Part shown: positions 11,860 through 57,591 of the stretch, one piece after another
Numbering within the stretch: the stretch's first letter is position 1
Layout of the letters: every line of letters begins with the position of its first letter
From: Pseudomonadota bacterium
Lineage (GTDB): Bacteria; Myxococcota_A; UBA9160; PR03
Assembly: GCA_003576805.1 (NCBI GenBank)
Contig: QEVM01000003.1
Location: 1,016 to 65,015 of the forward strand
DNA: 64,000 nucleotides
Direction of reading: 5' to 3'
Made by a program: the position numbers and the translations under genes
Notes under the pieces: model-generated
Told to the model about the DNA's origin: nothing
Database searches by the model: none
Seen by the model: the letters and a program-made list of their open reading frames with translations, nothing else

Positions 11860-12199
11860 TCATTCCGGAGACATGTCGAAGAAGCCCAGATCGAAGTCGA
11901 GGAAGCTGACCAGCCACACCTGGTCCTCGACCTCCCGGATCCCAACGATCTGGCCGGCAAAGGCCGTGCTCAGGTTGATCTTTCGCCGCCCCATGCAGAT
12001 GCGCCCGCAGCGAGTCACCCGAATGAACTTGTCGTGGAACGGGTACTCCGGCTCGGGCGGCGGCTCGTAGACGCGGCTCGAGGGCGTATAGACCTCGCCG
12101 GGATAGGCGCCGCCCAAGGCCTGGTGCGGCCGCTCGTGGTTGTAAACCGCTGCGAAGCGGTCGAAGCGCTCTTGCTGCTGCAGGAAGTTGAACGACGGA
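11860..12199 (-). mobile_element. IS481-family transposase 3' fragment (integrase-core C-terminus only; pseudogene remnant)
   Basis: 'FAAVYNHERPHQALGGAYPGEVY...PEPEYPFHDKFIRVTRCGRI...LSTAFAGQIVGIREVEDQVWLVSFLDFDLGFFD' matches the conserved tail of IS481-type DDE transposases. No N-terminal HTH or catalytic region present. Lower GC than flanks. Lies 39 nt from tRNA-Arg. Confidence 0.7.
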
Positions 12200-13092: not shown

Positions 13093-13325
13093 GAGGCTCC
13101 GATGGTGTGGTGGAACGCGCGGAGCCTAGGCGCTTCCGCGCGCACCGCTCGGAATGCGACTCGCGACCGCAAGGCGCGCGCGATCCGCACGATGTGGATC
13201 GGCCCGACGTTCGCTCGGTAGGCGACGAAGGCCGGCTCCATGGACCTCGAAGAAGATGTCCTCGAGATCTGTTTCGCCGGCGCTGGCGAACGGGCCGTCG
13301 GAGAAGATGCGGCGCGACCACATAT

Positions 13326-37552: not shown

Positions 37553-38917
37553 ATGCGGCTCGCGTCGTCTCGTTGGCTGATCGCGCTCGCGTGTCTGTGC
37601 GCGCCGCCCGCGGCGCGCGCGGACGTCGTGCTGGTCGGGCGCCTCACGTCGCCCGGCGTCGGCGCGGAGCTCACGGCGGGCGCGCAGGCGCCGTCGGTCT
37701 CGCCGGACGGGCGCTACGTCGCGTTCGCCTCGTCGTCGAACAACCTGGGCGTGCCGTCCAACGGTTCGCTCAACGTCTACCGCTACGACCTCGTGAGCGA
37801 CGTCTTCGAGCTCGCGACGCAGAACCTCGGAACGGGCAACAGCAGCGCGCCGTCGATCAGCGCCGCCGGCCTCGCGCTCGCCTTCCAGTCCGAGGCGAAC
37901 GACCTCGCGGTCGGCAATCCCTCGGGCGGCACCGACGTCTTCTACAGCGTCGCCGTCGACGCGGGCGGCGGCGCGATCGGCTTCGAGACCTACCTCGTCA
38001 GCCAGGGCATGGGCGGCGCGGCGCCGAACGGCGCGTCGCAGGACGCGTCGCTCTCGGCCGACGGCCGCTGGGTCGCCTTCCACTCGTCGGCTTCGAATCT
38101 GGTCGCCGGCGACACGAACGGCGGGCCGGACATCTTCGTCGCCGACGCCAACGATCTGTTCTCGACACCGCAACGCGTCAGCGTGACCGGCGCAGGCGTG
38201 CAGATCGACGGTCCGAGCCGCGCGCTCTCGCCGAGCGCGATCTCGGCCGACGGCCGCTACGTCGCCTTCGCGGTGGACACGCCGGTGTCGATCGACGGCT
38301 CCAACGCGGGCACGCTCGAGGACGTGTTCGTGCGCGACCGCGTCGCCGGCACGACGAGCCTCGTCAGCAAGAGCACGGCCGGCGTGGCGGGCAGCAGCTC
38401 GTCCGACATGGCGGCGATCTCGCCGAGCGGGCGCTTCGTCGCGTTCCGGTCGTTCTCGAGCAACCTGGTGACGAGCGCCAGCGGCAGCCGGATCTACGTG
38501 CGCGACCGCCAGCAGGGCGCCACGACCAACATGCCGCTGCCGCCGGGCGCGGCGAGCTGCGAGGACCCGCGCGTCTCCGACTCCGGCGACGTCGTCGCGC
38601 AGTGCAACATGAACGCCGGCTTCGCGCAGGCGTTCCTGTGGGATCCCGCCGGCGAGGGCGCGCTGTATCAGCTCAGCACCTCGCTGACGGACGGCCAGGG
38701 CAACGGCGCCTCGGGCAACTTCAGCGGCATCAGCGCCGACGGCGCCGTCATGGTCTTCGACTCCGCCGCCAGCGACCTCGTGCCGGACGACGCGAACAAC
38801 ACGCTCGACGTGTTCGTGGTGATTCCCGAGCCGGGCGTCGCGAGCGGATGGCTGGCGGCGGTGGCGGCGCTCGCGGCGCTCGCGCGGCGCCGCGGGCGAA
38901 GAGCGCCTCCCAGCTAG
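37553..38917 (+). CDS. TolB/PD40-like beta-propeller protein with PEP-CTERM tag
   Basis: Repeated 'S.S.DGR.VAF.S.ASNLV..D.N...D.F' PD40 blades. Tail 'IPEPGVASGWLAAVAALAALARRRGRR' at 38822-38914. ATG 37553 follows GAAGGAGGGGG. Confidence 0.75.
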   Translation: MRLASSRWLIALACLCAPPAARADVVLVGRLTSPGVGAELTAGAQAPSVSPDGRYVAFASSSNNLGVPSNGSLNVYRYDLVSDVFELATQNLGTGNSSAPSISAAGLALAFQSEANDLAVGNPSGGTDVFYSVAVDAGGGAIGFETYLVSQGMGGAAPNGASQDASLSADGRWVAFHSSASNLVAGDTNGGPDIFVADANDLFSTPQRVSVTGAGVQIDGPSRALSPSAISADGRYVAFAVDTPVSIDGSNAGTLEDVFVRDRVAGTTSLVSKSTAGVAGSSSSDMAAISPSGRFVAFRSFSSNLVTSASGSRIYVRDRQQGATTNMPLPPGAASCEDPRVSDSGDVVAQCNMNAGFAQAFLWDPAGEGALYQLSTSLTDGQGNGASGNFSGISADGAVMVFDSAASDLVPDDANNTLDVFVVIPEPGVASGWLAAVAALAALARRRGRRAPPS

Positions 38918-41900
38918 CCGAGCCGCGCGCGGCGGGCGAGCAGCTCGCGCAGGGTCGGGAGATCCACCGGCTTCACGAGGTGCGTGTCGAAGCCGGCGGC
39001 TTCCGACGTGCGGCGGTCCGCGTCCTGGCCGTAGCCCGTCATGGCGACGATCAGCGCGTCCGCGAGCCCGTCCTCGCGCATCGCACGGCACGCGTCGTAG
39101 CCGCTGCGCTTGGGCAGGCCGATGTCGAGCAGCACCACGTCGGGCCGCTCGGCGCAGGCGCGCGCGACGGCTTCGTCGCCGTCGTGCGCGATCGACACGG
39201 CGTGTCCGTCCATCTCGAGCAGCAGCGCCATGCTCTCGGCCGAGTCGCGCAGGTCGTCGACGACGAGAACGCGCAGCGGCCGCGCGGTCTTCGGGGGCGC
39301 CGTCGCCTTCGGCGCCGCTTGCGTCTGTGGCTCGTCCGGCAGGCACGGCAGGCGCACGACGAACTCGCTGCCGCGGCCGCGGCCCTCGCTGTGCGCCTCG
39401 ACGCGGCCGCCGTGCATCGCGACCAGGCTCTTCACCAGCGAGAGCCCGATGCCGAGGCCGCCGTCCGCGCGGTCGAGCTGGTGGTCCACCTGGAAGAACA
39501 GGTCGAACACGCTGCCGAGCGCGGCGGGGTCGATGCCCTGCCCGCTGTCGCGCACGCGCAGCACGGCCTCCGCCGCGCCGCCGTCGCCGGCGCGCTCGAG
39601 CGAGATCCGGATGCGGCCGCCCCGGTCGGTGTACTTGGCCGCGTTGTGCAGCAGGTTGCCGACGACCTGGACCAGGCGCGCGAAGTCGCCGTCGACCGGC
39701 AGCGGCTCGCGCGGCAGCACGACGTCGAGCCGATGGCCGCGCGCCTCGACAAACGGGCGGCTCGTCTCGACGGCGTGGCGCACCGCGGTCGCGAGCTCGA
39801 GCGGCCCTTTTTGGAGCTGGATCATGCTGCGCGACACGCGCGCGACGTCGAGGAGGTCGTCCACCAGCCGCGCCATGTGCTCCACCTGGCGCTCGATCAT
39901 GTCGCGCGCGCCGTCGAGCGTCGGCTCCTTCGGGCCGACCAGGCGGATGATCTCGACCGCGTTGCGGATCGGCGCCAGCGGATTGCGCAGCTCGTGGCCG
40001 AGCATCGCGAGGAACTCGTCCTTGCGCCGATCGGCGAGCCGCAGCGCCGCCTCCGCGCGCTTGCGGTCGGTGACGTCGTGCCCCTCCGCCACCAGCAGCA
40101 CGATCTCGCCGCGCTCGTCGCGAACCGGCGAGAGCGAGAAGTCGACGGTGCCGTCGCTGCCGTCGCCGCGCCGGTAGTCGAGCTCGAAGCGCAGCAGCTC
40201 GCCCGCGCGCGCGCGCCGGATGGCCTCGCGCACGCGGTCGCGCTCGTCCGGGCGCTGCGAGAACCAAACCGCTTCCCACAGCCGGGTGCCGACGACGTCG
40301 CCGGCGGAGGTTCCCATCCCGGCGAGCGCGCTGCGGTTGGCCTCGAGGACGGTGCCGTCCGGCGCGAGCAGCGCGATGTAGTGGAAGGCGGAGTCGAAGA
40401 TGCCGCGCAGACGCCGTTCGCGGTCGCGCAGGGCGGCCTCGGCGCGCGCGCGCTCGAGCCGCAGGTGCACGCGCGCCGCGACCTCCTGGAGCAGCACGAC
40501 CTCGTCGTCGCGCACGGCGACCACGCCGCCCGCGCGGAGCTGCGCGAGGAACGCGTCGCCGAGGCGCTCGGCGAGCCGCCCGTCGTCGCCCACGGCCTCC
40601 GCGCCGCCGAGTACGGCCAGCGCTGCGCCGTCCGCGCCGGCGCCGTGGAAGCTCGCGTGCGCGACGTCGAAGTGACGCGCGACGAGTCGCGCGGCGGCCT
40701 CCGCAATCTCGAGCGGCGACGAGAGCGGCGCCAGCGCGGTGCCGAGATCGGACAGGAACGCCAGCGCGAGCTGGGCGCGGCGGCGATCGGTCACGTCGGT
40801 CACGAGTGCCACCAGGTGCGCCGGCGCGCCCGACTCGTCGCGCAGCAGCGACACGAACTTCTGCACCCAGACCGGCGCGCCGTCGCGGCGCACGTAGCGG
40901 TTCTCGATCTCGAAGAACGGCAGCTCCTCGTCCATCAGCCGGCGCACCGCGGCGAGGTTCTCCGCGCGGTCGTCGGGATGCACGAGGTCCGCGAACGCGA
41001 TCTCGCGCAGCTCCTTCTCCGTGTAGCCGACGATCGCGGAGAAGGCGGCGTTGCACTCGAGGAAGCGGCCCGTCCAGTCGGTGAACGCGATGCCCGTCGC
41101 CGCGTGATCGAAGATGTTGCGAAAGCGCGCCTCGCTCGCGTGCATCGCGGCTTCGGCGCGCTTGCGCTCGCCGATGTCCTGCACCTCGATCACGGTGCCG
41201 ACCGGCTTGCCGTCGGCGTCGCGGATCGGGCTCGCGGTGAACGCGACGTCGTAGAAGCGGCCGTCCTTGTGGACGAACACATCCTCGCCGCGCTCGCGGT
41301 CGTTCGACGGGAACGCGCGGTCGATCGGGCATTCGGCGAGCGGGACCGGGGAGCCGTCGGGCCGCGTGTGGTGGATGGCGTCGTGCAGCGGCCGGCCGCG
41401 CAGCTCGTCGATCGTGAAGCCGGTCATTTGCTCGGCGGCCGGGTTCATGAAGACGCACTCCTGCCGCGCGTCCATCAGGAAGAGCGCCAGGCTCGCGTTG
41501 TCGGTGACCGACGCCAGCAGCCGCTGCTGCTCCTGCAGCGCGTCCGCCACCGTCGCGCGCTCCGACACGTCGCGCGCGGCCGCGTCGTACTCGCGCACGC
41601 AGCCGTCCTCGATGCGGCCCGCGATCGAGACGAGCATCAGCTTGCGGTGGCCCGCGCGGTCGAGGTGCTCGGTGCGCGCCTGCGCGAGGCGGTGATCGCT
41701 CGCGACGAGCCGCAGCATCATCGCCTCGTTGTCCGCGGTGCGCGGCAGCACGTCGCCGAGCGGCTGGCCGGCGAGGTCCTTGGCGCGGTCGTAGCCGTGC
41801 CAGCGCGCGAAGCCGTCGCCGACGGCGACGAAGAACGCCTCGCGGTAGATCCAGTCGACCTGCTCGTGCGGCGCGAGGCGCAGCGGCAGCGGCTCGCGCA

Positions 41901-41997
41901 GGCGCACGTGGAACACCATGTCCGAGGTGTTCTCGAGCAGGAAGCGGTAGCGCTCCTCGGAGCTCACGTTCGATCGAGTTCCGAGCTGCGTGCGCAC
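38914..41997 (-). CDS. Hybrid sensor histidine kinase with multiple PAS domains and a C-terminal receiver
   Basis: Several PAS/PAC units. HisKA 'FLAMLGHELRNPLAPI'. HATPase 'GGLGIGLSLV'. REC 'VLVVDDLRDS...DVVLLDIGLP'. Confidence 0.85.
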   Translation of the reverse strand: MRTQLGTRSNVSSEERYRFLLENTSDMVFHVRLREPLPLRLAPHEQVDWIYREAFFVAVGDGFARWHGYDRAKDLAGQPLGDVLPRTADNEAMMLRLVASDHRLAQARTEHLDRAGHRKLMLVSIAGRIEDGCVREYDAAARDVSERATVADALQEQQRLLASVTDNASLALFLMDARQECVFMNPAAEQMTGFTIDELRGRPLHDAIHHTRPDGSPVPLAECPIDRAFPSNDRERGEDVFVHKDGRFYDVAFTASPIRDADGKPVGTVIEVQDIGERKRAEAAMHASEARFRNIFDHAATGIAFTDWTGRFLECNAAFSAIVGYTEKELREIAFADLVHPDDRAENLAAVRRLMDEELPFFEIENRYVRRDGAPVWVQKFVSLLRDESGAPAHLVALVTDVTDRRRAQLALAFLSDLGTALAPLSSPLEIAEAAARLVARHFDVAHASFHGAGADGAALAVLGGAEAVGDDGRLAERLGDAFLAQLRAGGVVAVRDDEVVLLQEVAARVHLRLERARAEAALRDRERRLRGIFDSAFHYIALLAPDGTVLEANRSALAGMGTSAGDVVGTRLWEAVWFSQRPDERDRVREAIRRARAGELLRFELDYRRGDGSDGTVDFSLSPVRDERGEIVLLVAEGHDVTDRKRAEAALRLADRRKDEFLAMLGHELRNPLAPIRNAVEIIRLVGPKEPTLDGARDMIERQVEHMARLVDDLLDVARVSRSMIQLQKGPLELATAVRHAVETSRPFVEARGHRLDVVLPREPLPVDGDFARLVQVVGNLLHNAAKYTDRGGRIRISLERAGDGGAAEAVLRVRDSGQGIDPAALGSVFDLFFQVDHQLDRADGGLGIGLSLVKSLVAMHGGRVEAHSEGRGRGSEFVVRLPCLPDEPQTQAAPKATAPPKTARPLRVLVVDDLRDSAESMALLLEMDGHAVSIAHDGDEAVARACAERPDVVLLDIGLPKRSGYDACRAMREDGLADALIVAMTGYGQDADRRTSEAAGFDTHLVKPVDLPTLRELLARRARLG

Positions 41998-42135: not shown

Positions 42136-43863
42136 TCAGTACCCCTGGACGCTGCGCGCCTTGCGGAACTGCTCCCAGCCCGGCGGCTGGGTGTTGAGCT
42201 GCTGGTCGACCTGCACGTGCAGCACGGCGGGCTTGCCCGCGGCGACGGCGCGCGCGAGCGCGGGCTCCATGTCCTCGATGCGCTCGACGCGCTCGCCGTG
42301 GCAGCCGAGGCTGCGCGCGAGGTCGTCGTACGCGACGCGCGCGAGGTCGATGCCGCGGCCCGCCCAGTCGTCGGCGCCGTGTCCCTGCGCGAGGTACGCG
42401 GTCTTCTCCATGCCCCACGCGTCGTCGACCGCGACCACCACCACGATCGGAAGCTTCTCGCGCGCCGCGGTCTCGAGCTCCATCGGATGGAAGCCGAACG
42501 CGCCGTCGCCGGTGATCAGGCACACCGGCCGGTCGGGCGCGGCCAGCTTGGCGCCGAGCGCGAACGGAAGCCCGGTGCCGAGGTATCCCATCTTCACCGA
42601 GTAGAGGAAGCTCGGCGACGAGAGGATCGGGTGGAACGCGACACCGGTCAGCGTCGTGTTGCCGCCGTCGAGCACCGTGATCGACTCGGGCGGGAAGTGC
42701 TGGCGGATCGCCATCACCATGCGGCCCGGGTTGACGCCGGTCGTGCACGCGGTGCCGAGGTACGCGATGCCGGTCTGCATGGTCTCGGCGCTCTTCTCGC
42801 GGTAGCGCGCGAGGTCGGCCGGCGCGCCGCGCGGACCGGTGAGCTTGCGCACCGCCTCGAGCAGCGCCGCGAGCGAGAGCCGCGCGTCCGCCACGATCCC
42901 GAGGTCCACCGGGCGGTTCAATCCGATCGACATTGGGTCGGCGTCGATCTGGATCGTCGTCTGACGCGACGGGTCGCCCCACATCGGCGGGCCGCCCCAG
43001 CCGTCGTACTCGCCGAGCCGCGCGCCCACGACCAGGACGGCGTCGGCCTCGGCGCGCGCGAGGCCCGCGCCGTTGAGATCGAAGGGATGGAAGCAGTGCG
43101 GATGGCTCTCGGCGATCACCCCGCGCGCGCCGAGGCTCGTGCCCATCGTCGCGCCGAGGTGCTCGCCGAGCGCGACGAGCTCCTTGCCGGCGTCCGCCCA
43201 GAGCGCGCCCTTGCCGGCGTGCAGGTGGATGCGGCGCGCGTTCGCGAGCAGCTCCGCCGCGCGCGCGATCGCGCTCGGATCGCCCGCGCCCATGCTGGTC
43301 ACGCGGTAGCGCGCGGCCTCGTGGATCGGCGGCAGCCGCTCCGCGTCGATCTTCTCGAGCAGCAGCTCGTCGGGGATCGCGAGGTAGGCGGGTCCCGGGC
43401 GGCCCGTCATCGCGGCGCGGAACGCCGCGCGCATCATCTCGGGCAGCCGCTCCCACTGGCGCACCGTCGCGGCGTACTTGGTGATCGGCCGCGCCATGCT
43501 CTCGGTGTCGGCCGACTGCCAGGCGCCGCCGCGGTTCGGATCGCTCTTGATGCGCGGCCGCAGCGTTCCGATCGCGACGATCGGATGTCCCTCGGCGTGC
43601 GCGGACACCACGCCCGCGAGCATGTTGCCCGTGCCGCAGCCCGGGTTGCCGATCACGACGGCGGGCTTGCGCGCGATGCGCGTGTAGCCCTCGGCGACGT
43701 GCACCGCGGCCTCTTCGTGGTGCGCGTTGACGTAGCGAATGCCGTAGCGCTGCGTGTGCAGCACGATCGGGATGTGCGCGCCGTCGATGATGCCGGTGAC
43801 CAGCTCGATCCCTTCCGCGTGCAGACAGCGGACCAGCAGCTCGCCGACGGTGATCTCGGCCAT
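42136..43863 (-). CDS. Thiamine-diphosphate-dependent enzyme (acetolactate synthase large-subunit-like family)
   Basis: N-terminal 'HEEAAVHVAEGYTR...GPGCGTGN'-type PYR domain and C-terminal 'ITGDGAFGF' ThDP/Mg (GDG...N) motif. GAGAGGAGA RBS. Confidence 0.85.
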   Translation of the reverse strand: MAEITVGELLVRCLHAEGIELVTGIIDGAHIPIVLHTQRYGIRYVNAHHEEAAVHVAEGYTRIARKPAVVIGNPGCGTGNMLAGVVSAHAEGHPIVAIGTLRPRIKSDPNRGGAWQSADTESMARPITKYAATVRQWERLPEMMRAAFRAAMTGRPGPAYLAIPDELLLEKIDAERLPPIHEAARYRVTSMGAGDPSAIARAAELLANARRIHLHAGKGALWADAGKELVALGEHLGATMGTSLGARGVIAESHPHCFHPFDLNGAGLARAEADAVLVVGARLGEYDGWGGPPMWGDPSRQTTIQIDADPMSIGLNRPVDLGIVADARLSLAALLEAVRKLTGPRGAPADLARYREKSAETMQTGIAYLGTACTTGVNPGRMVMAIRQHFPPESITVLDGGNTTLTGVAFHPILSSPSFLYSVKMGYLGTGLPFALGAKLAAPDRPVCLITGDGAFGFHPMELETAAREKLPIVVVVAVDDAWGMEKTAYLAQGHGADDWAGRGIDLARVAYDDLARSLGCHGERVERIEDMEPALARAVAAGKPAVLHVQVDQQLNTQPPGWEQFRKARSVQGY

Positions 43864-43919
43864 GGCAGGCGTCTCCTCTCTCGTTCAGTCCGCTCGGAAC
43901 TGGATCGCGCGCACTCCGC

Positions 43920-45146
43920 TCATCGCCCGGCCCGCCGTGATGCGGGCTCGATCACGAGGCCGGCGAGGCCGCGCACGTTGCTCGAGTGCATGCGCTCGAC
44001 GCCGTCGGCCGGCGTCTCGTAGTCGGGCCAGCGGCGCAGGAACTCCTCGATGCCGATCCGCGACTCGAGCCGCGCGAGCGACGCGCCCAGGCAGAAGTGG
44101 CGGCCGTAGCCGAAGCCGAGGTGCAGCTCGATGTCGCGGCGCACGTCGTAGCGGTCGGGATCCGCGAAGCGGCGCTCGTCGCGGCCGCTCGCGCCGTTCA
44201 CGAGGAGCACGCGCGCGTGCTTCGGTATGCGCGCGCCGTGCAGCGCCACCTCGCGCGTCGTGATGCGGCCCTGGTACTGCGAGGGCGGGTCGAAACGCAG
44301 CGTCTCCTCGACGGCGTTGGCGATCCAGTGCGGTTCGCGCACGAGGATGCGCCGCTGGTCGGGGCTGCGCGCCAGCTCGAGGAACGCGGTCGCGAGCAGC
44401 TTCGTCACCGTCTCGTTGCCCGCGGTCGCGAGCAGGATGAAGAACGAGCGGATCTCCTCGTCGGCGAGCCGCTGCGCGCCGCCGTCGTCGGCCTCGACCT
44501 CGACCTGCACGAGGTCGCTCATGAGGTCGTCCTTCGGCGCGCGGCGGCGCTCGGCGATCTGCGCGTCCCAGTACGGGATCAGCTCGAGCGACGCGCGGAT
44601 CGCCTCGGGCGTCGGGTGCGGGTTGCCCGGCTCGCGGTGCAGCATCAGATTCGCCTTGCTCTGCACCATGGCGCGATCGGCTTCGGGGATGCCGAGCAGC
44701 GTGCTGATCACGTCCATCGGCAGCCGCGCGGTGAACTCGCGCACGACGTCGAAGCGCGGCCGGCCGACCAGCGCGTCGAGGTGGCGCGCCGCGATCGCGC
44801 GGATCATCGGCTCGAGCGCGCGCACCCGGTTCAGCGTGAACGCCTTCGAGACCAGCTTGCGGTAGCGCGTGTGGCGCGGCGCATCCATGTAGATCATGAG
44901 GCCCATCGCGTCCTTCGGGCCGTCCATGAACTCGAGGCTGGTGCCCCAGGTCGACGAGTACGTCGCCGGGTCGAGGAAGGCGTCGAGGTTGTCCTGGAAG
45001 CGCGTCAGCGCCCAGAAGTCGAGGCGCTCGTTGCGGTAGGCGGGCGCCTCGTCGCGCATCCAGCGGTAGACGGGATACGGGTCCTGGTCGAGCTCGTACG
45101 AGAACGGGTCGTACTCGAGATCGGCGCGGGGAAGGGCTCGCGACAT
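43920..45146 (-). CDS. Cytochrome P450
   Basis: Heme loop 'FGYGRHFCLGASLA', 'EETLRF' (ExxR), I-helix 'LLATAGNETV'. Confidence 0.9.
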   Translation of the reverse strand: MSRALPRADLEYDPFSYELDQDPYPVYRWMRDEAPAYRNERLDFWALTRFQDNLDAFLDPATYSSTWGTSLEFMDGPKDAMGLMIYMDAPRHTRYRKLVSKAFTLNRVRALEPMIRAIAARHLDALVGRPRFDVVREFTARLPMDVISTLLGIPEADRAMVQSKANLMLHREPGNPHPTPEAIRASLELIPYWDAQIAERRRAPKDDLMSDLVQVEVEADDGGAQRLADEEIRSFFILLATAGNETVTKLLATAFLELARSPDQRRILVREPHWIANAVEETLRFDPPSQYQGRITTREVALHGARIPKHARVLLVNGASGRDERRFADPDRYDVRRDIELHLGFGYGRHFCLGASLARLESRIGIEEFLRRWPDYETPADGVERMHSSNVRGLAGLVIEPASRRAGR

Positions 45147-45713
45147 CGAGCACACGCTACCACGCGCTTCGGCGCGCGGGCGCGCGTCGCATCGCGTGCG
45201 CACTCGCCGCTGCACGCGCCGCGCGGCGGCGCATTGCAGCGCACGGCCGCTGCGTGCTCGACGTCTCGAATGTCGCCTTCGCCGACGCCGCGACCGTGCC
45301 GCTCGACGCCTCGTCCGGCTTCGCGCCGGCCAATCGTCGTTCCCATTCGTCGCGGACGGCCAGCGCTTCGCTCGCTCGATCGCGAGCCGCGCCGCATCTC
45401 CGCCGGCACCGGCGGCCCGCGTGTGCGCGGGCGGGTCGGCCGCGCCGCGGCCGGGGGACCGAGAGCCCGGCTGCGCAGCGCGCCGGCAGCGCACGGGCAG
45501 CGGCGCGGCGGCGGACGAGCAGCCGCCGTCACGCCGCGACTCGAAGCTTTCGTCACCCGGTCCGCTCGACGGGGCACTCAACCGATACGGGTCGGGCGCC
45601 ACGGAAGTCGGACACCCTCCGGGGACCGGCTTTGTCGGAACACGACCGAGACTTACCCTGACCGGGCCGCGCGACACGAACGACGTTCGACCCCGAGGCC
45701 GACGGAGGAAGCG

Positions 45714-46580
45714 ATGGAAGCCACCGAGCGGATCGCCGAGAAGCTGACCCGCGCCTCGCAGAAGTTCTTCTACGACGTCACCACCAAGCTCGATTGGCCC
45801 GCGACGCTCGATCACTCGACGTGGTGCATGTCGCCCGAGCTGGTCTCGCTCCACGGCACCCCGCTCTGGGACGAGATGGACGACGAGGCGCGCCGCAAGC
45901 TCGCCTTCTACGAGATCGCCGGCTTCTTCAGCATGACGCTGAACGGCGAGCGCCCGCTGCTCGAAGGCATGAGCCACCGCATCTACACGCTCGAGAAGCG
46001 ACTCCCGGTGCTCGAGTACCTGCACCACTTCCTCGACGAAGAGAACAAGCACATGATGATGTTCTCCGGCTATCTGCGGCGCTACGTCGGGAAGGTGTAC
46101 CCGGAGAAGAAGATCCCGTTCGCGCGGCCGATGGCGAAGGGCGAAGAGGACATCGCGTTCTTCCTGAAGGTGCTGATCGTCGAGGAGCTGTCGGACTACT
46201 ACAACGTCCACATGGGCCACGACGAGCGGCTGCCCAAGATCATCCGCGACATCAACTGGACGCATCACGTCGACGAGGCGCGCCACGTCCACTTCGGCCG
46301 CAACTACATGAAGCAGCTCTGGGACCAGCACACCCCGGCGTGGTCGCCCGAGCAGCTCGCGTCGTTCCGCGGCTGGCTGGTCGACTACATCAATGCGAGC
46401 TGGCGCGACTTCTACCACCCCGGCGTCTACAAGGACGCCGGCTTCGCCGATCCCTACGCCGCGCGCAAGCTGGCGATCGAGTCGCCCGTCTGCCGCGCGC
46501 ACCGGCAGAAGTGCTCGGAGCGCTTCCTCTCCAACCTGGTGGATTCGGGCGTGCTGCCCGCGATCCCGGAGCTGGCATGA
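45714..46580 (+). CDS. Ferritin-like di-iron oxygenase (AurF/CmlI-like family, assignment by motif)
   Basis: Two ExxH boxes ('LDEENKHMMMF', 'HVDEARHVHF') plus additional carboxylates in four-helix-bundle spacing. GGAGGAAGCG RBS. Stop overlaps the ACP start (ATGA). Confidence 0.6.
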   Translation: MEATERIAEKLTRASQKFFYDVTTKLDWPATLDHSTWCMSPELVSLHGTPLWDEMDDEARRKLAFYEIAGFFSMTLNGERPLLEGMSHRIYTLEKRLPVLEYLHHFLDEENKHMMMFSGYLRRYVGKVYPEKKIPFARPMAKGEEDIAFFLKVLIVEELSDYYNVHMGHDERLPKIIRDINWTHHVDEARHVHFGRNYMKQLWDQHTPAWSPEQLASFRGWLVDYINASWRDFYHPGVYKDAGFADPYAARKLAIESPVCRAHRQKCSERFLSNLVDSGVLPAIPELA

Positions 46581-46819
46581 ACGACGTCGTGATCAAGGAC
46601 CGACTGCGCGGCTGGATCTTCGACCGCGCCAAGGACAAGCCCGCCGAGCTGAAGGACGACACGCCCGTCCTCGAGAGCGGCATCCTCTCCTCGCTCGACG
46701 TGGTCGAGCTGATCCTCTTCATCGAGGAGATCAAGGGCGAGGAGGTCGCGGTGGACGCGCTCGAAGCCGACTCGATCCGCGACGTCAACGCGATCTACGC
46801 CACCTTCTTCGCGAGCTGA
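46577..46819 (+). CDS. Stand-alone acyl/peptidyl carrier protein (80 aa)
   Basis: 'LESGILSSLDVVELILFIE' is a carrier-protein helix-2 Ser motif. Size, acidity and position next to an adenylating enzyme fit. Confidence 0.7.
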   Translation: MNDVVIKDRLRGWIFDRAKDKPAELKDDTPVLESGILSSLDVVELILFIEEIKGEEVAVDALEADSIRDVNAIYATFFAS

Positions 46820-46820
46820 G

Positions 46821-48356
46821 TCAGGGCGCGAAGACCAGGTCCCACGCGACCTTCCGATCGCTCTTCCCGTTCGGCGTGCGCGGCATGTCCGTCGCGACGG
46901 CGATCTTGCGCGGGACCATGTAGGCCGGGAGCCGGCCCTGGAGCGCGGCGGCGACGTCCCGCTTCGTCGTCCCCGGCGCGAGCACGACCAGCGCGCCGAT
47001 GCACTTCTCGTCCATGACGGGGCTGTCGTTGAAGACGACGACGCCTTCGAGCACGCCGTCGATCTTGAGCAGCACCGACTCGATCTCGCCGAGCTCGATG
47101 CGGTTGCCCATGTACTTGATCTGCTGATCGCGGCGCCCGACGAACAAGATCGAGCCGTCGGGCCCGATGCGGCCGAGGTCGCCGGTGCAGTAGATCGGGT
47201 CGTGGAAGAGATCGTGGCGCGGGTTCTGCACGAATGCGGCGCGCGTGCGCTCGGGATCGCCGAGATAGCCGTACGCAACCGAGTTGCCGCGCACGACGAT
47301 CTCGCCCTCGGCGCCCGGCTCGGCGGAGAGCGAGCCGTCCTCGCGGCGCACGAACACCTCCATGTTGCGGCGCGGCTTCCCGATCGGGATCGCGGTCGCG
47401 TCGGGATCGGGCTTCTCGCGGATCACGTGGTAGGTGCAGTCCACGGTGATCTCGGTCGGGCCGTACATGTTGGTGAACTGGATGTCCGGGTAGAGCTCCA
47501 TCCAGCGGCGCACGACGTCGGGCGGCAGCACCTCGCCAGCGGCGATCACGTGGCGCAGCGCCGGGAACGAGTCGGGCGCGAGGCGGCCCGACTTCAGCAG
47601 GATCGTCATCACGCTCGGCACGCAGAAGAAGGTGGTGACGCCGCGCTCGCGCAGCCACGAGATCATCTTGGGCATGATCAGATTGAGGTCGTCGTGCACG
47701 AGGTGCAGCGAGGCGCCGGTCTTGAAGGCGCAATAGAGGTCGAAGGTCGAGTTGTCGAAGTAGAGCGGCGCGTGGTTGGCAAGGACGTCGCGGTCGCTGA
47801 GCGCGTAGGTCTCCACGCACCACTCGATGTAGTCCACGATCATCTGGTGGCTGATCATCACGCCCTTCGGCGTGCCGGTGGAGCCGGACGTGAAGAGCAC
47901 GTACGCGACGTCGATGGAGAGGTTCGCGTAGTCGAGCGGGTCGCCCGGATCCTCGGGCGCACGATCGAGGCTCACGACGTCGAGCCGCGCGGCGCTCGGG
48001 CAGATCTCGCGCAGGCGCGCCTCGGTGGCGGCGTCGACGATCACCTGACGCGCGCGCGTCGCGGCGAGGATCGACTCGATGCGCGGGCCCGGCGACGTCG
48101 TGTCGAGCGGGACGTAGGTGCAGTCGGCCTTCAGGATGGAGAGGATCGCCTCGATCGCGTGCACGCCCTTCTTGAGGAAGAGCGGCACGAAGTCGCCGCG
48201 CCGGGCGCCGCGCCGGCGCAGCTCGCGGGCGCGCGCGTTGGTGCGCGACTCGAGCTCGCCGTAGGAGATCGCGTCCTGCGCGCACGAGACGGCCAGCTTG
48301 GCCGGGAAGCGTCGCGCGGACTCGCTGAAGTACTGCTGGACGAGCGTGGTCACCAC
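46821..48356 (-). CDS. Stand-alone amino-acid adenylation enzyme (DltA-like / NRPS A-domain)
   Basis: A3 'LFTSGSTGTPKGV', A4 'YFDNSTFDL' (Asp present, suggesting an alpha-amino substrate), A5 'NMYGPTE', A7 'YCTGD', A8 'GRRDQQIKYMGNRIELGEIE', A10 'PNGKSDRK'. Confidence 0.9.
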   Translation of the reverse strand: MVTTLVQQYFSESARRFPAKLAVSCAQDAISYGELESRTNARARELRRRGARRGDFVPLFLKKGVHAIEAILSILKADCTYVPLDTTSPGPRIESILAATRARQVIVDAATEARLREICPSAARLDVVSLDRAPEDPGDPLDYANLSIDVAYVLFTSGSTGTPKGVMISHQMIVDYIEWCVETYALSDRDVLANHAPLYFDNSTFDLYCAFKTGASLHLVHDDLNLIMPKMISWLRERGVTTFFCVPSVMTILLKSGRLAPDSFPALRHVIAAGEVLPPDVVRRWMELYPDIQFTNMYGPTEITVDCTYHVIREKPDPDATAIPIGKPRRNMEVFVRREDGSLSAEPGAEGEIVVRGNSVAYGYLGDPERTRAAFVQNPRHDLFHDPIYCTGDLGRIGPDGSILFVGRRDQQIKYMGNRIELGEIESVLLKIDGVLEGVVVFNDSPVMDEKCIGALVVLAPGTTKRDVAAALQGRLPAYMVPRKIAVATDMPRTPNGKSDRKVAWDLVFAP

Positions 48357-49501
48357 GGGCTTTGCTCCATCAGGGTTCCCCACACGGCCGCGAGGCGGTC
48401 CGCGCCGACCCGGCGCAGGATCGCGTTGCGGCGCGCGAGCCGCTCCGGCCCGAGGCGCCGGTTGGCCTCCATGCGCGCGAGCGACTCGCGCTGCACGAAG
48501 CCGGTGCGCGGCCGGCGCCGCGCCTCGAAGCGCGCGAGCGCGGGCGCGACGCCGTCGCCGGCGGCCAGCGCATCGCACAGCACGGCTGCGTCCTCGAACG
48601 CCATCGCACCGCCTTGTGCCAGGGTCGGCGCGCTCGCGTGCGCCGCGTCGCCGATCAGCACGCATCGGCCCCGGTGCCAGGGCTCTTGAGCGACGTTCCA
48701 GTAGCGCGAAGGGACGAGGGCCGTCGCCTCGCCGACGCCGTCGATCACCTCGCGCGCGGGGCCCTCGAAGTCGGCGAAGAGCGCGCGCAGCTGGGCGTGC
48801 GGCGGATCGCCCTGCGCGAGCGGCAGCGCGACGTCCGCGGGACCGGCCCCGCAGTACACGGCGTCGCCGGGCAGCGGGTGCAGCAGCAACGTGCGGCCGT
48901 CGCCCAGCATGTAGAGCGGGTCGTCGAGCCCGCGCGGGCGCCGCGCGACGAAGCGCCAGCCCGCGAAGCCCGCGATCGGCGCGGGCGCGGGCGCGCCGAA
49001 CACGAGCGCGCGCACGCGCGATTGCACGCCGTCGGCGCCGATCACGAGGTCGTACTGCGCGCGGCTGCCGTCGGAAAGCAGCGCGCCGGCGCGTTCGCCT
49101 TGCGTGTCGAGGCGCTCGACGCTGACGCCGCAGCGCGGGCGCAGCGGCGCGGCGGCGTCGAGCAGCGCGCGGCGCAGCGCGGCGCGGTGCACGCTCGCGA
49201 AGTCGGGCCACGCGGGACGCCGGCCCGCGACGTCGACGTGGAACAGCTCGCGATGGCGGTGGTCGCTGAAGCGCACGCGCGCGACGGGCCGGCCGACCGC
49301 GCGCACGCGATCGCCGGCGCCGAGCCGGTCGAGCGCGGCGAACGCGTTGCCCGTGAGCAGGATGCCGGCGCCGGCGTCCGCGGCATCGCCGTCGCGCAGC
49401 TCGAGCCACTCCACCTCGGCGCCCGCATCGCGCAGTCCCGCGGCGACCGCGGCGCCCGCGAGGCCCGCTCCGACGATCAGCACGCGGAGCGGCCCGCTCA
49501 C
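48350..49501 (-). CDS. FAD-dependent aromatic-ring-type monooxygenase (UbiH/salicylate hydroxylase class A)
   Basis: 'RVLIVGAGLAGAAVA' (GxGxxG), 'LVIGADGVQSRVR' (DG motif), 'VLIGDAAHASAPTLAQGGAMAFEDA' (GD motif). GTG overlaps the upstream stop (GTGA). Confidence 0.85.
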   Translation of the reverse strand: MSGPLRVLIVGAGLAGAAVAAGLRDAGAEVEWLELRDGDAADAGAGILLTGNAFAALDRLGAGDRVRAVGRPVARVRFSDHRHRELFHVDVAGRRPAWPDFASVHRAALRRALLDAAAPLRPRCGVSVERLDTQGERAGALLSDGSRAQYDLVIGADGVQSRVRALVFGAPAPAPIAGFAGWRFVARRPRGLDDPLYMLGDGRTLLLHPLPGDAVYCGAGPADVALPLAQGDPPHAQLRALFADFEGPAREVIDGVGEATALVPSRYWNVAQEPWHRGRCVLIGDAAHASAPTLAQGGAMAFEDAAVLCDALAAGDGVAPALARFEARRRPRTGFVQRESLARMEANRRLGPERLARRNAILRRVGADRLAAVWGTLMEQSPW

Positions 49502-50445
49502 GACGGCGCCCGCGTCTCCGCCCGCACCTGCTGCATGCGCCAGAGCAGCTCGTCCACGACGCGCCAGCCGTCCATCGCGCCGCGACACGAGAGCTCGAAC
49601 ATGCGCAGGCTCTCGCCGGCTTCCACCTTCACGCGCGGCAGGCTGCCCGCCGCGGCGCCCGGGCGGATCGCGCCGTGCAGCGCGTTGAACACGACCTCGT
49701 AGCCGACCTCGGTGAGCATGCGCTCGGTCGCCTCGTTGAAGTCGGCGCGCGTGCCGAACGGATACGCGAACGCGCGCGGCGGCGCGCCGAGGCGCTCCGC
49801 GAGCAGCGCGCGCGAGCGCTCCGCCTGCGCGCGCGCGTCGCCGAGCGAGAGCCGCCCGAGCGAGACGTGGTCGAAGGCGTGCGAGCCGATCTCGACGCCG
49901 GCGTCGCGCACGCGCGCGAGCTCGTCCCACGCGAGGAACGGCTCGGGCGCGTCGGGACCGACGCCGCTGCCGATGCAGCCCGCGGAGACGAAGAACACCG
50001 CCGGCACGCCGTGCTCGCGCAGCACCGGCAGCGCGACGTCGAGCACGCTGCGGTAGCCGTCGTCGATCGTGACGAGGACGGCGTCGGGCGCGAGCGCGCG
50101 GCGGCCCGCGGCGAACGCGAGCACGTCGTCGAGCGAGACGAGGCGTCCCGCGCGCGCGAGGCTGCGCATCTGCGCGTCGAAGTCGCGCTGCGGCACGCAC
50201 CACGGGTCGCGCGGCAGGTCGCCGAAGCGGTGATAGGTGAGCGCGCGGACGCGGGCCCCCGCGCCGAGGCGCGCGCGCAGCGCGACCGCCCCGGTGCCCC
50301 AGGCGCCGAAGGCCAGCGCGGCGCGCGCGACCTTCTTCGCGATCCAGCGACGTCGATCCAGGTCGGCATCCCCTCTCTTGGCGAGTGACTGCGCGGGCCG
50401 CGCAGGGTACAGGAATCCCGCGTACCGATCGCGTCTCCGGCGCAT
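49498..50445 (-). CDS. Polysaccharide deacetylase (NodB-homology, CE4-like)
   Basis: 'VLVTIDDGYRS' (DD motif), 'PAVFFV', 'IGSHAFDH', 'FAYPFG' NodB motifs. Confidence 0.85.
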   Translation of the reverse strand: MRRRRDRYAGFLYPARPAQSLAKRGDADLDRRRWIAKKVARAALAFGAWGTGAVALRARLGAGARVRALTYHRFGDLPRDPWCVPQRDFDAQMRSLARAGRLVSLDDVLAFAAGRRALAPDAVLVTIDDGYRSVLDVALPVLREHGVPAVFFVSAGCIGSGVGPDAPEPFLAWDELARVRDAGVEIGSHAFDHVSLGRLSLGDARAQAERSRALLAERLGAPPRAFAYPFGTRADFNEATERMLTEVGYEVVFNALHGAIRPGAAAGSLPRVKVEAGESLRMFELSCRGAMDGWRVVDELLWRMQQVRAETRAPS

Positions 50446-50560
50446 CGGCCGCGCGTCGCGGGTTCGCGAGCGCGCAGTCGATACGCTCTCGATAGAATGG
50501 GCTCCAGCGGCTCCGGAAAGCAGCCGAGACGCAATCGCGTCGCAGACGAGAAGGTATTTC

Positions 50561-51685
50561 TTGGCGATTCAGGTCGTTCCGTACACCGAAGAGTGGGTCG
50601 AAGGCGTGCGCGCCTTCAACGCGCGCATGCGGGACGCGAATCTGCACTGGGGCTGGTACGCGACGCCGGTGGACGCCTGGCTCGACGCGCCGCCCGGCAA
50701 GCACAAGACCTGGCGCGAGCACCATCTCGCGGTCGAGGACGGCCAGCACGTGCGCGGCGCCTTTGCGCTCAAGCCGCACGAGTGGTGGATCCACGGCCAG
50801 CCGCGCACCGTCACCGACTGGCAGGGGCCGATCACCGAGGCCGCCTACGATCCGCGCTTCGCGATGCTCGGCGTGCGCCTGATGCGCGAGATGCTGCGCC
50901 AGCATCCGCTGCTCTACAGCTGGGGCCACGGCGGCGCCGAGCAGCCGATGCTGCGCATGATCGAGAAGATGGGCTTCGTGCTGCACGCGACGCCGTTCTG
51001 CCTGCGCATCCTGCGCCCGTTCCGCTTCCTGCGCCGCAACCGCTACCTGAGGCACTCGCCGCGCAATCGGCTCGCGCTCGACGTCGCCGCGTTCTCGGGC
51101 GCGGGCGGCGTCGCGCTGCCGCTCCTGCACGCGGCGCTCGCCGCGCGCGAGCGGCGCAGCGCGCCCGCGCAGGCGACGCCCTTCGAGCGCTTCGAGGGGT
51201 GGGCCGACGCGCTCTGGGAGCGCTGTCGCGGCCGCTACGCCGCGATCGCGACGCGCGACGCCGAGACGATGAACGTGCTGCTGCGGCCGGGCGGCTGGCC
51301 GGCGGCGATCAAGCTGCGCGTCGAGCGCGGCGGCGAGACGCTCGGCTGGGCCGCGGTCCTCGACACGCAGATGGAGGACGACCGCCGCTTCGGCACGCTG
51401 CGGCTCGGCTCGCTGATCGATGCGCTCGCGAAGCCCGAGGACGCCGAGGCGGTCGTCGGCGCCGCGTTCCGCTTCCTGCGCGCGCGCGGCGTCGACCTCG
51501 TCGTGTCGAACCAGGCGCATCCCGCGTGGGCCGCCGGCTTCGCGGCGCACGGCTTCCTCGTGCTGCCGGGCCGGCGTCTGCTCGCGATGTCGCCCGCCAT
51601 GCACGACGCCTTCGCGCCGCTCGCGGAGACGACCGCCGGCCTCCACATGACGAATCTCGACGGCCACGGCCCGATGCGGATGTAG
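50561..51685 (+). CDS. Hypothetical acyltransferase-like protein (possible GNAT/FemAB-like fold; weak call)
   Basis: GC3-biased 374-codon frame divergent from the deacetylase operon. TTG 50561 follows GAGAAGG. Length and C-terminal 'GVDLVVSNQAHPAWAAGFAAHGF' resemble FemAB/Acetyltransf_6-type proteins found beside deacetylases. Not verified. Confidence 0.4.
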   Translation: MAIQVVPYTEEWVEGVRAFNARMRDANLHWGWYATPVDAWLDAPPGKHKTWREHHLAVEDGQHVRGAFALKPHEWWIHGQPRTVTDWQGPITEAAYDPRFAMLGVRLMREMLRQHPLLYSWGHGGAEQPMLRMIEKMGFVLHATPFCLRILRPFRFLRRNRYLRHSPRNRLALDVAAFSGAGGVALPLLHAALAARERRSAPAQATPFERFEGWADALWERCRGRYAAIATRDAETMNVLLRPGGWPAAIKLRVERGGETLGWAAVLDTQMEDDRRFGTLRLGSLIDALAKPEDAEAVVGAAFRFLRARGVDLVVSNQAHPAWAAGFAAHGFLVLPGRRLLAMSPAMHDAFAPLAETTAGLHMTNLDGHGPMRM

Positions 51686-51743
51686 TCGCTCCGCGGCGAT
51701 CGCGACGGAGTAGGATCGACGGGACCACCTGAAGGAGGTCCCC

Positions 51744-52169
51744 GTGCGCCGGATCCCCGTCTTCGTCGCCATCCTCGCGCTGCTCGCGGCCGCCGCGCCC
51801 GCCGCCCGCGCCATCTTCTCGTCGCCGATCCACGCGGGCTGCTACATCGCGGCGCCGGGCGACTGCCGGATCCGCGTCGATCCGTTCACCGTGAACGTCG
51901 CGTCGGGCGAGAAGCTGGTGCGCCTCCAGCTCACGGCGGCGCGCGTCGGCGCCGGCTCCAGCGTGGTCTACGACTGGCGCCCCGACGTCTCGAACCCCGT
52001 GCCGTCGGGCGGCGCCAGCACGTACGCGCCGGCGATCCCGAGCCTCGACGTCGCGGCGGCGTGCGGCGAGGCGTACGTGCTCTCGCTCCAGGGCCAGGAC
52101 ACCGGCGACGCGAACCTGCTGAACGCGGGCCAGACCGAAGCGTTCACGTGTCCGAGCGCCGTTCCGTGA
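51744..52169 (+). CDS. Small secreted 4-Cys protein (paralog A, no sorting tag)
   Basis: Signal peptide [23 protein letters not shown]. Aligns along its length with the next gene (CY.A..G.CR...DPF...VYD...NP...Y.P..P...A.C.E.YVL...QD.GDA...T.A..CP). Confidence 0.6.
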
Positions 52170-52650
52170 CGCGCCGCGCGCGCGCGCTCGTGTGGGCGGC
52201 CGCTTGCGCCTCGCTCGCGACGGGCGCCGCGGAGGCGTTCGTCAGCGCGAGCCCGATCGCCGCCGCGTGCTACGCGGCGGAGCGCGGCTGCCGCGTGCAG
52301 CTCGATCCGTTCGCGCTCGAGGTCCCGCTCGGGCGCCGCCTCGCGCACGTCTCGATCGAGCTGGACGGGCAGCCCGTCTACGACTTCTCGACGGACGCGA
52401 GCAACCCGCCCGCCGGCGCCTACGTGCCGACCTTGCCGGCGCGCGGCTTCGCGGCGCGCTGCGAGGAAAGCTACGTGCTGACGGTGCGCGCGCAGGACGA
52501 CGGCGACGCGGTCGCGTCCGTGGCGGCGCAGACCGACGCGATTCCGTGTCCCGTGCGCGTTCCGGAGCCCGAAGCGAGCCTCGCGGCGGGCGCTGCGCTC
52601 GGCGTGCTGCTGGCTCGTCGCCGACGCAGGACTCGGTCTATCCTGCGCGC

Positions 52651-52654
<4 letters not shown>
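52166..52654 (+). CDS. Small secreted 4-Cys protein (paralog B) with PEP-CTERM tag
   Basis: GTG 52166 overlaps the paralog A stop (GTGA). Tail '[24 protein letters not shown]' at 52559-52651. Its stop overlaps the BVMO start (ATGA). Confidence 0.65.
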
Positions 52655-54447
<1,793 letters not shown>

Positions 54448-56989: not shown

Positions 56990-57560
56990 GGACGCGGAGC
57001 TGCTCGAAGCCGCCGACGGCGGCGAGGCGCTGCGGCTCGCTGCGCAGCATCCCGACCTCGACCTCGTGCTGCTCGACCTCGAGATGCCCGGCGTGGACGG
57101 CCGCACCGGGCTGCGCCGGCTGCGCGCCGCGCACCCGGAGATCCCGGTCGTGATCGTGTCGGCCGCGGCCGACGGCGCGCAGATGCGCGCGTCGCTCGAC
57201 GCGGGCGCGTCCGGGTACGTGCCGAAGGGCATGCCCGCGGCCGAGATGCGCGCGGCGCTCCAGCTCGTGCTCGCCGGCGGCGTCTACGTTCCGCGCGGCG
57301 CGCTCGGCGCGCCGCCCGACGCAGCGAAGAGTCACGAGGCGCGGCGGCGGCGCGTCGCGGGCCTCACGCCGCGCCAGCGCGACGTGCTGCTGCTCGTGGT
57401 GCGCGGCCTCACCAACCGCGAGATCTGCGGCGTGCTCGCGATCGCGGAGGGCACGGTGAAGGCGCACGTCGCGGCGATCCTCGACGCGCTCGGCGCGAGC
57501 AATCGCACGGAGGCCGCGATGCTCGCGCGCGAGCTGGGTCTCGACGACCCGGCCGCGTAG
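56916..57560 (+). CDS. NarL/FixJ-type response regulator (REC + LuxR HTH)
   Basis: 'MLVCDDHAVFR...DLVLLDLEMPGVDG' receiver. 'LTPRQRDVLLLVVRGLTNREICGVLAIAEGTVKAHV' LuxR HTH. Start is GTG 56916 or ATG 56922. Confidence 0.9.
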   Translation: MKMLVCDDHAVFRMGLRAVLRAIDEDAELLEAADGGEALRLAAQHPDLDLVLLDLEMPGVDGRTGLRRLRAAHPEIPVVIVSAAADGAQMRASLDAGASGYVPKGMPAAEMRAALQLVLAGGVYVPRGALGAPPDAAKSHEARRRRVAGLTPRQRDVLLLVVRGLTNREICGVLAIAEGTVKAHVAAILDALGASNRTEAAMLARELGLDDPAA

Positions 57561-57591
57561 CGCAAGCGCGCGGCGGCGGACGGAGCGCCCG

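Follow-up and report, generated by a model that had tools for sequence, protein, structure and literature searches.

In a 64,000-nucleotide stretch of contig QEVM01000003.1 (GenBank assembly GCA_003576805.1, positions 1,016 to 65,015; hereafter the window), from a bacterium of the Myxococcota_A lineage UBA9160, six neighbouring genes (45714-51685) are, judged by their conservation and linkage in related genomes, a functional unit which is widely conserved and for which no function has been described. They encode an AurF/CmlI-like di-iron oxygenase, a free carrier protein (CP), a stand-alone amino-acid adenylating enzyme (A-domain), a class A FAD-dependent monooxygenase, a NodB/CE4 deacetylase and a protein which we refer to as H. 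Literature searches returned no account of these genes as a set. We give an even chance to the reading that the unit is a self-contained module resembling a type II non-ribosomal peptide synthetase (NRPS), which would load an amino acid, oxidise it on the carrier and transfer it. A broader proposal, which we advance tentatively and regard as rather improbable in its entirety, is that many phyla share an undescribed decoration, in which a proline-like residue is oxidised on the CP (N-oxygenated or otherwise) and H attaches it to a de-N-acetylated amino sugar of a surface glycan or glycolipid, with the di-iron enzyme in the role that a flavin dehydrogenase plays in every known thiotemplated proline pathway.

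A conserved gene neighbourhood

We compared each window protein against all of 90 related loci. Homologues of the di-iron protein numbered 610 (E ≤ 1e-5), nearly all metagenomic; no GTDB species representative carried one above 67% identity, and relatives above 77% identity sit on contigs of less than 6 kb, where their gene context is not visible. Ordered by identity to the window di-iron protein, the loci form four groups. Group I (L001, L003/L004, L007-L009, L041; 63-74% identity) has the di-iron and CP genes converging on the A-domain and FAD monooxygenase genes, and this convergent arrangement of the window, flavoenzyme included, recurs in all seven group I loci. Group II (L005, L010-L025; 44-52%) has the collinear order H, di-iron gene, CP, A-domain, followed by NodB in some loci, and no flavoenzyme. 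Group III (L026-L046; 33-44%) mostly has the di-iron/CP pair alone, and a Streptomyces group (44 loci, L047-L090; 27-31%) has the di-iron gene alone with no CP.

The pairing of di-iron and CP genes is the tightest and most widespread linkage of the set. Using a sensitive CP profile, a CP gene was detected immediately 3′ of the di-iron gene in 37 of the 46 loci outside the Streptomyces group (at least 33% identity) and adjoining it in none of the 44 inside that group, the two genes often overlapping or lying 3-30 nt apart. The pair occurs in Myxococcota, Burkholderiales, Gammaproteobacteria, Nitrospirota, Acidobacteriota, Marinimicrobia and Obscuribacterales. Besides the window, linkage of H to the core is seen in L008 and in 13 of the 17 group II loci, and several phyla have all five genes (H, di-iron, CP, A-domain, NodB) arranged collinearly in a single group II operon; NodB homologues of 47-52% identity directly follow the A-domain in L012, L016, L017 and L020, and lie elsewhere in the locus in L009, L010, L014 and L019. 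An earlier note, made from the window sequence, had proposed a cluster of eight genes and suggested testing its neighbourhood conservation: the six genes at 45714-51685 are conserved together, with the acyltransferase-like gene (here H) and NodB truly linked to the core, and the two remaining members, a cytochrome P450 and a thiamine diphosphate (ThDP) enzyme, fall outside the unit.

The di-iron branch of Streptomyces, Actinacidiphila and Streptantibioticus (L047-L090) carries D-ExxH, as in AurF itself. With no adjoining CP in 44 of 44 loci, it is by gene context a separate functional subfamily.

A proline-type carrier protein and adenylation domain

The phosphopantetheine attachment site of the CP, Ser39, lies in the motif LSSLD, in which S38-S39-L40 is invariant. 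Although the Pfam PP-binding match was below threshold (16.8 bits), the best match in the PDB was PltL, at E 4e-7 as a single sequence (the next match being at 0.015) and 1.6e-12 as a family profile, and Ser39 aligns with the PltL serine. After PltL, the CP profile matched Bmp1-ACP (6cxt; PMC10849742) and then PigG, all three being prolyl/pyrrolyl carriers. The ornithine-lipid model ACP_for_OlsHI was considered for the CP and rejected (28.7 bits, far below the cutoff of 130). An 80-residue protein with an invariant Ser39 agrees with its first description as a free carrier outside any NRPS or polyketide synthase (PKS) assembly line.

The adenylating enzyme scored 367 bits against the amino-acid adenylation model TIGR01733 (cutoff 317), as its initial annotation would predict, and has Asp235 and Lys517. 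Its specificity code, whose extraction the earlier note had recommended, was read by alignment to a fragment of GrsA, a procedure whose control returned the textbook DAWTIAAICK. The window code, DNFFIAMVDK, is invariant across group I; group II A-domains, which are ~32% identical to the window's and likewise above the TIGR01733 cutoff, carry DLFFLCLIAK. Both resemble the consensus of stand-alone proline A-domains, D-L-(L/F)-Y-L-A-L-V-C-K (PMC3874040): the window code is identical at 5 of 10 positions and conservative at three more, deviating at Asn236 and Asp331, and the group II code is identical at 6 of 10 and conservative at the other four. Of three residues reported as proline contacts, the window enzyme keeps two (A301, V330), and its best stand-alone PDB match was PltF (249 bits). 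A glycine substrate, raised by a very high score to LgrA, was discarded, that score being the sum of two separate A-domains. The PltL-like CP, the likeness of the code and the match to PltF, the closest stand-alone structure, suggest that CP and A-domain are a proline-type pair of a type II NRPS, whose substrate would be L-proline or a polar, proline-like imino acid.

A di-iron oxygenase tied to the carrier

The di-iron protein scored 141.3 bits against the Pfam family AurF (PF11583; cutoff 29.6), covering profile positions 3-275 of 282. Its predicted structure (pLDDT 93.4) had CmlI (5hyh, 5hyg) and AurF (2jcd, 3chu) as top Foldseek matches, at TM 0.60-0.69, with R2lox and R2-like oxidases and the R2 subunit of ribonucleotide reductase (RNR) ranking below. 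These nearest folds set it apart from the housekeeping desaturase-like proteins that had been named as a possible alternative, and family, fold, translational coupling by an ATGA overlap and the 37 of 46 linkage all agree with its first reading as an AurF/CmlI-like oxygenase tied to the CP. An alignment of 43 homologues shows E79, E110/H113, E157 and H184-x2-D187-E188-x2-H191 with little or no variation, and groups I-III retain them, so that at motif level the 3-His/4-carboxylate ligand set (E, ExxH, E, HxxDExxH) is present; we take the position of E157 to match AurF E196. The residue before ExxH is E in groups I-III, D in the Streptomyces group and Q in none of 93 sequences.

Sites with 3-His/4-carboxylate ligands are largely specific to N-oxygenases (PMC12101540), HamC and PvfB N-oxygenate a carrier-tethered valine (PMC11659414), and prolyl-S-ACP is N-oxygenated, there by the flavoenzyme ChmG, in chalkophomycin biosynthesis (PMC10849742). 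The ligand site together with these two precedents favours, by analogy, N-oxygenation of the tethered residue as the di-iron step. CylC is also a distant AurF-like protein with HxxDExxH, distinguished by a diagnostic QExxH in which Gln replaces AurF D135 (PMC12101540).

Protein H, the flavoenzyme and the deacetylase

Protein H had no Pfam match at E ≤ 0.01 (PF02388 and PF13480 included) and no NCBIfam match, yet its model (pLDDT 92.3) has a double-GNAT fold, for which the best Foldseek matches were N-myristoyltransferases (NMT) and Eis-like acetyltransferases. The earlier description of this protein as FemAB-like therefore stands at the level of the fold, and in fusions of H with Acetyltransf_6 (P0428, P0495), and fails in that neither PF02388 nor PF13480 was matched. 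The family is large, with 469 close homologues and 1283 representatives at 50% clustering, and its other fusions have the order AMP-binding(+FkbM methyltransferase)–PP-binding–H (P0504, P0500) or AMP-binding–H (P0453). In the former, adenylation, thiolation (carrier) and H follow in that order (A-T-H), with H directly after the carrier domain, where a condensation or off-loading domain would stand. The predicted fold and these fusions with A-domains and carriers indicate that H is probably a carrier-protein-dependent off-loading transferase of acyl or aminoacyl groups, and the domain order suggests that fused H domains are a new class of terminal off-loading domain in single-module synthetases.

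The FAD monooxygenase matched FAD_binding_3 (80 bits) and, below cutoff, NF005313 (236 bits); its nearest structures were aromatic-ring hydroxylases, namely NicC, tropone monooxygenase, HpxO, PhzS and salicylate hydroxylase. Every locus of group I encodes it, and none of group II does. The deacetylase scored 84.2 bits against PF01522 (Polysacc_deac_1; cutoff 23.1), and its nearest structures were the polysaccharide deacetylase 4wcj, the IcaB/PgaB-type proteins PgaB/BpsB and chitin deacetylases.

Glycan context and proposed pathway

Of 15 independent group II loci, 11 have homologues of glycosyltransferases (GT), Wzx, WecG or Alg14 at distances of up to 10 kb. L010, for instance, holds a Wzx flippase, GT2, GT4 and WecG transferases, a deacetylase and a phosphopantetheinyl transferase (PPTase), and L005 holds glycosyltransferases, Alg14, a sulfotransferase and AlgX-like genes. 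N-linked amino acids and oxidised prolyl-type acyl groups are present on amino sugars of O-antigens (PMC10609480). Going by this gene context, the acceptor amine is probably on a cell-surface sugar polymer, an extrapolation to the window from other loci, since no glycosyltransferase lies near the window's own module.

We infer the substrate, the type of oxidation, the order of steps and the acceptor as follows. The A-domain would activate an alpha-amino acid, L-proline or a proline-like one, and join it as a thioester to Ser39 of the CP. The di-iron oxygenase would then oxidise the tethered residue, in place of the acyl-CoA-dehydrogenase-type enzyme of pyrrole pathways: no member of the Acyl-CoA_dh family appears in the Pfam lists of the window or of the annotated neighbourhoods L001-L010, and the di-iron gene is translationally coupled to the CP, which together argue that the di-iron enzyme holds the oxidase's place. 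In group I alone the flavin monooxygenase would carry out a second oxidation, on the carrier or before loading; the occurrence of the flavoenzyme goes together with that of the polar Asn236 and Asp331, a covariation which may mean that this enzyme works before loading. The NodB-type deacetylase would free the amine of an amino sugar in a glycan or glycolipid, and H would move the oxidised acyl group from the CP to that amine.

Points against the proposed pathway and alternative explanations

Several observations weigh against this pathway. Searched by sequence, the di-iron protein had no PDB match at E ≤ 1, and its family profile gave only marginal matches to R2 and ADO rather than to AurF or CmlI; in groups I-III its first ExxH is preceded by E and not D, and C-H hydroxylation, or desaturation to a pyrrole, is chemically as possible as N-oxygenation. 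The window code has the polar Asn236 and Asp331, outside the published proline consensus, and for the group II A-domain 8k4r, 6akd (which we believe to be IdnL7) and 4oxi (250 bits; which we believe to be AlmE) are, overall, closer matches than PltF, so the A-domain substrate may instead be a small aliphatic amino acid or Gly/Ala. The relatives of the FAD monooxygenase are hydroxylases of free aromatic acids. Alignment and hydropathy gave no convincing transmembrane helix for NodB, whose conserved N-terminal segment is weakly hydrophobic. In most group I loci the flanking sequence retrieved does not include H, and NodB is found again in no more than nine loci. No glycosyltransferase is within reach in the window, L001, L003 or L041, and a PKS and a PPTase stand beside the core in some loci, suggesting another fate for the carrier-bound unit.

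The last two points bear on what we consider the strongest alternative, possible though doubtful, in which the genes make a building block for a diffusible natural product: an oxidised proline unit would prime a PKS or NRPS or enter a small amide, with H as an amide synthase acting on a small amine and NodB removing a protecting acetyl group. The likeness of CP and A-domain to PltL and PltF fits this, as pyrrolyl-S-PltL primes pyoluteorin synthesis, and so do L007 (9604-16633), L008 (10726-17753) and L009 (8143-15187), in which the four-gene core is directly followed by a GT2, an Sfp-type PPTase and a ~2140-residue type I PKS of ketosynthase (KS), AT and KR domains, with PKS homologues also in L012 and L016. 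However, the window is without PKS, NRPS or transporter, most group II loci lie among Wzx, GT2, GT4 and WecG genes, and the linkage of NodB/CE4 with an N-acyltransferase fold follows the logic of Nod factors. The PKS-bearing loci themselves carry GT2, GT4, WecG or AlgX-like genes, and their product may be a glycolipid.

A pathway in the style of DltABCD or AlmEFG, in which the amino acid is transferred unmodified while the di-iron enzyme N-hydroxylates the deacetylated sugar amine and H makes a hydroxamate on the glycan, we consider improbable. Deacetylase, N-oxygenase and N-acyltransferase are the classical order of hydroxamate formation, the group II A-domains match the presumed AlmE structure, and LitN has been proposed to oxygenate an amide nitrogen (PMC10616846). 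Against it, the di-iron/CP pair persists in group III without H and NodB, which argues that the substrate of the di-iron enzyme is carrier-bound.

That all eight genes serve one pathway, with three types of oxygenase acting on the tethered residue, is largely refuted and in our view very unlikely. The genes are physically adjacent, the P450 and di-iron genes being divergent with 567 bp between them, and the closest relatives are on contigs too short to reveal their context. Yet among the 90 related loci no ThDP homologue was found, and P450 matches were generic (28-31% identity), confined to four loci and 7-9 kb from the core, never adjoining it. P450 relatives of 85% identity belong instead to a P450-Rieske (KshA-like)-P450 operon (L091, 6669-10239; L092, 840-4422) with unrelated neighbours, an operon which is absent from the window, and the P450 family is ~10 times more abundant than the di-iron family. 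With the P450 outside and the FAD monooxygenase confined to the group I type of locus, the three oxygenase types shrink to two, and we judge from this distribution that the P450 and ThDP enzyme, neither of which is next to the core in the related loci, are mere neighbours of the module, for which a lineage-specific accessory role remains conceivable.

We give scarcely any credence to a CylC-type dimetal halogenase chlorinating a carrier-bound acyl chain, which would share its trio architecture (ligase, acyl carrier protein (ACP), halogenase) with CylA/CylB/CylC and the distant AurF likeness with CylC, and which we rejected as every homologue has E or D before ExxH and never QExxH, the glutamate E157 is conserved at the position taken as AurF E196, and the ligase is an amino-acid A-domain rather than a fatty acyl-AMP ligase.

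Gene organisation and neighbouring genes

The window is ~72% G+C, and genes were mapped by third-position G+C and not by open-reading frame (ORF) length (Table 1). Independent gene calls on Logan assemblies with the same locus (runs SRR7051042-45) gave the same eight genes, at 374/315/383/511/80/288/408/575 residues, and the coordinates, strands, overlaps and single-base stop gap of the layout first reported were all reproduced, with the junctions taken from the sequence itself. Pfam detected no condensation, KS or thioesterase (TE) domain in any substantial ORF of the window, in keeping with the initial view that this is not a classical NRPS or PKS.

Table 1. The module, its adjoining genes and intergenic features, in window coordinates
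Feature	Position	Strand	Size	Remarks
ThDP enzyme	42136-43863	-	575 aa	three TPP domains
Cytochrome P450	43920-45146	-	408 aa	PF00067, 92 bits; FGYGRHFCLG loop
Gap between P450 and di-iron genes	45147-45713		567 bp	G+C-rich; presumed promoter region of the di-iron/CP pair
AurF/CmlI-like di-iron oxygenase	45714-46580	+	288 aa	PF11583
Carrier protein (CP)	46577-46819	+	80 aa	
Inverted repeat	46806-46834		14 nt	arms 46806-46819 and 46821-46834, 86% complementary
Stand-alone amino-acid adenylating enzyme (A-domain)	46821-48356	-	511 aa	TIGR01733
Class A FAD-dependent monooxygenase	48350-49501	-	383 aa	FAD_binding_3
NodB/CE4 deacetylase	49498-50445	-	315 aa	PF01522
H	50561-51685	+	374 aa	no family match; divergent from NodB

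The di-iron gene is preceded by a GGAGGA ribosome-binding site, and the overlap which by our reading of the sequence couples it translationally to the CP gene is at 46577-46580. The CP and A-domain stops converge with one base between them (TGA-g-TCA, 46817-46823), and GTGA overlaps join the A-domain to the FAD monooxygenase (48350-48353) and the latter to NodB (49498-49501); the Logan gene caller starts the A-domain at a GTG at 48356, so that it overlaps the FAD monooxygenase by 7 nt. The single base separating the two stops is also the centre of the inverted repeat, both proteins end F-A-x-stop, and the repeat may form a bidirectional hairpin shared by the CP and A-domain genes. The gap upstream of the di-iron gene contained no ORF with a coding G+C pattern, no Rfam match at E ≤ 1 and no sigma-70-like site, and a promoter/terminator scan and repeat search of it returned nothing significant. 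G+C is uneven along the module, at ~0.61-0.70 across 45600-48200 (di-iron, CP, A-domain) and 0.76-0.79 across 48300-50200 (FAD monooxygenase, NodB), a composition which may reflect mosaic assembly of its two halves.

The ThDP enzyme is acetolactate synthase/Xsc-like, with every NCBIfam model below cutoff and no equivalog, and immediately downstream of its gene is a multi-PAS hybrid histidine kinase (38914-41967, -). Beyond H, a fourth type of oxygenase lies nearby, a PtlE-like Baeyer-Villiger monooxygenase (BVMO; ORF 52123-54447, +; true start near 52690), with 879 bits to NF045818 (below the cutoff of 1100). Between the two, a 151-residue ORF (51714-52169, +) has a coding G+C pattern, a signal-peptide-like hydrophobic N-terminus (19-residue hydropathy 2.19) and no family match; the Logan gene caller divides this region into genes of 141 and 162 residues. 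Neither this ORF nor the BVMO has a homologue in any of the 90 related loci, and the BVMO is probably unrelated to the module. A LuxR-type response regulator and a GAF hybrid kinase follow at 56907-60435 (+), and neither flanking kinase region is linked with the module in relatives. Far upstream, a tRNA gene (11745-11818, +), which overlaps an upstream extension of a TrkA-type channel ORF, stands beside an ORF (11860-13125, -) with a weak match to an integrase core (rve_3); the region 11745-13125 may be an integration site.

Comparison with known systems

The type II NRPS systems that convert proline to pyrrole (PltF/PltL/PltE/PltA; PigI/PigG/PigA; Bmp; ChmJ/ChmI/ChmG/ChmH; and CloN4/CloN5/CloN3, with transfer to a sugar) share with the module a stand-alone A-domain, a free CP of ~80 residues and tailoring on the carrier. 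They use an acyl-CoA-dehydrogenase-type (ACAD) oxidase where the module has a ferritin-fold di-iron oxygenase coupled to the CP, and they off-load by a KS, a condensation domain or an alpha/beta hydrolase where it has the double-GNAT protein; the module is further set apart by a code with Asn236 and Asp331 and, in related loci, by a polysaccharide-locus context. PvfB/PvfC and HamC/HamD, which we liken to the module from their published description, pair an AurF-family di-iron enzyme with an aminoacyl thioester (PMC11659414) and have the 3-His/4-carboxylate site in common with it. There, however, the carrier is a domain of an adenylation-thiolation-reductase (A-T-R) NRPS and release is reductive, to small signalling molecules, whereas the module has a free CP and no reductase. 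AurF and CmlI themselves share their Pfam family, closest fold and ExxH and HxxDExxH motifs with the window protein, which differs in being 288 residues long and CP-paired, in its E-ExxH, in lacking a sequence-level match to either and in having no aromatic-amine pathway genes nearby.

Systems that decorate glycans offer a second set of likenesses. DltABCD and AlmEFG combine a stand-alone A-domain and a small CP to decorate an envelope glycoconjugate, but the module has an oxygenase and a different transferase, with no MBOAT protein (DltB), DltD or LPLAT-type AlmG. Neither MBOAT nor DltD was among the Pfam results for the window ORFs, and the Dlt models all scored below cutoff (TIGR01734, 277 vs. 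559.85; NF003417, 291 vs. 476; DltC NF003464, 19.6 vs. 68), which disposes of orthology to DltA/DltC, the alternative that had been raised for this pair. The exopolysaccharide (EPS) loci of PEP-CTERM/exosortase systems (TIGR03098, TIGR03019, TIGR03006) contain an analogous ligase, ACP, FemAB-like protein and deacetylase, and no di-iron oxygenase. The likeness to these sets drawn in the earlier note goes no further than analogous parts: TIGR03098 scored 238.4 against a cutoff of 592.35, H and NodB did not match TIGR03019 or TIGR03006, and no exosortase was found in the scanned ORFs.

In Nod-factor synthesis, a CE4 deacetylase frees the amine of a glucosamine, and a dedicated carrier delivers a special acyl group by way of an N-acyltransferase. 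A NodB-family deacetylase is common to that system (NodB, NodA, NodF/NodE) and the module, but there the acyl group is a fatty acid built by a KS and transferred by NodA, and here it would be an A-domain-loaded amino acid, oxidised on the carrier by an oxygenase and transferred by H. By its gene content the module resembles Nod-factor, Dlt/AlmEFG and thiotemplated proline logic and is a member of none of them, since the Dlt and PEP-CTERM models fall below cutoff, NodA, MBOAT, LPLAT and an ACAD oxidase are absent, and QExxH is not found.

If the proposed pathway is correct, the di-iron proteins would represent a large family of CP-dependent AurF-like oxygenases, with hundreds of homologues in many phyla and no characterised member. 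The H family of ~370-residue proteins, which has no Pfam or NCBIfam model, would gain a function, and with it a new way of off-loading carrier proteins would be added. The case of the P450 and the ThDP enzyme also illustrates that adjacency in one genome does not amount to pathway membership. To our knowledge, the biosynthesis of amino-acid and oxidised-prolyl N-acyl groups on surface glycans is largely unassigned; the module would supply candidate genes for these groups on bacterial surface glycans and, for the oxidised-prolyl type, the first enzymology.

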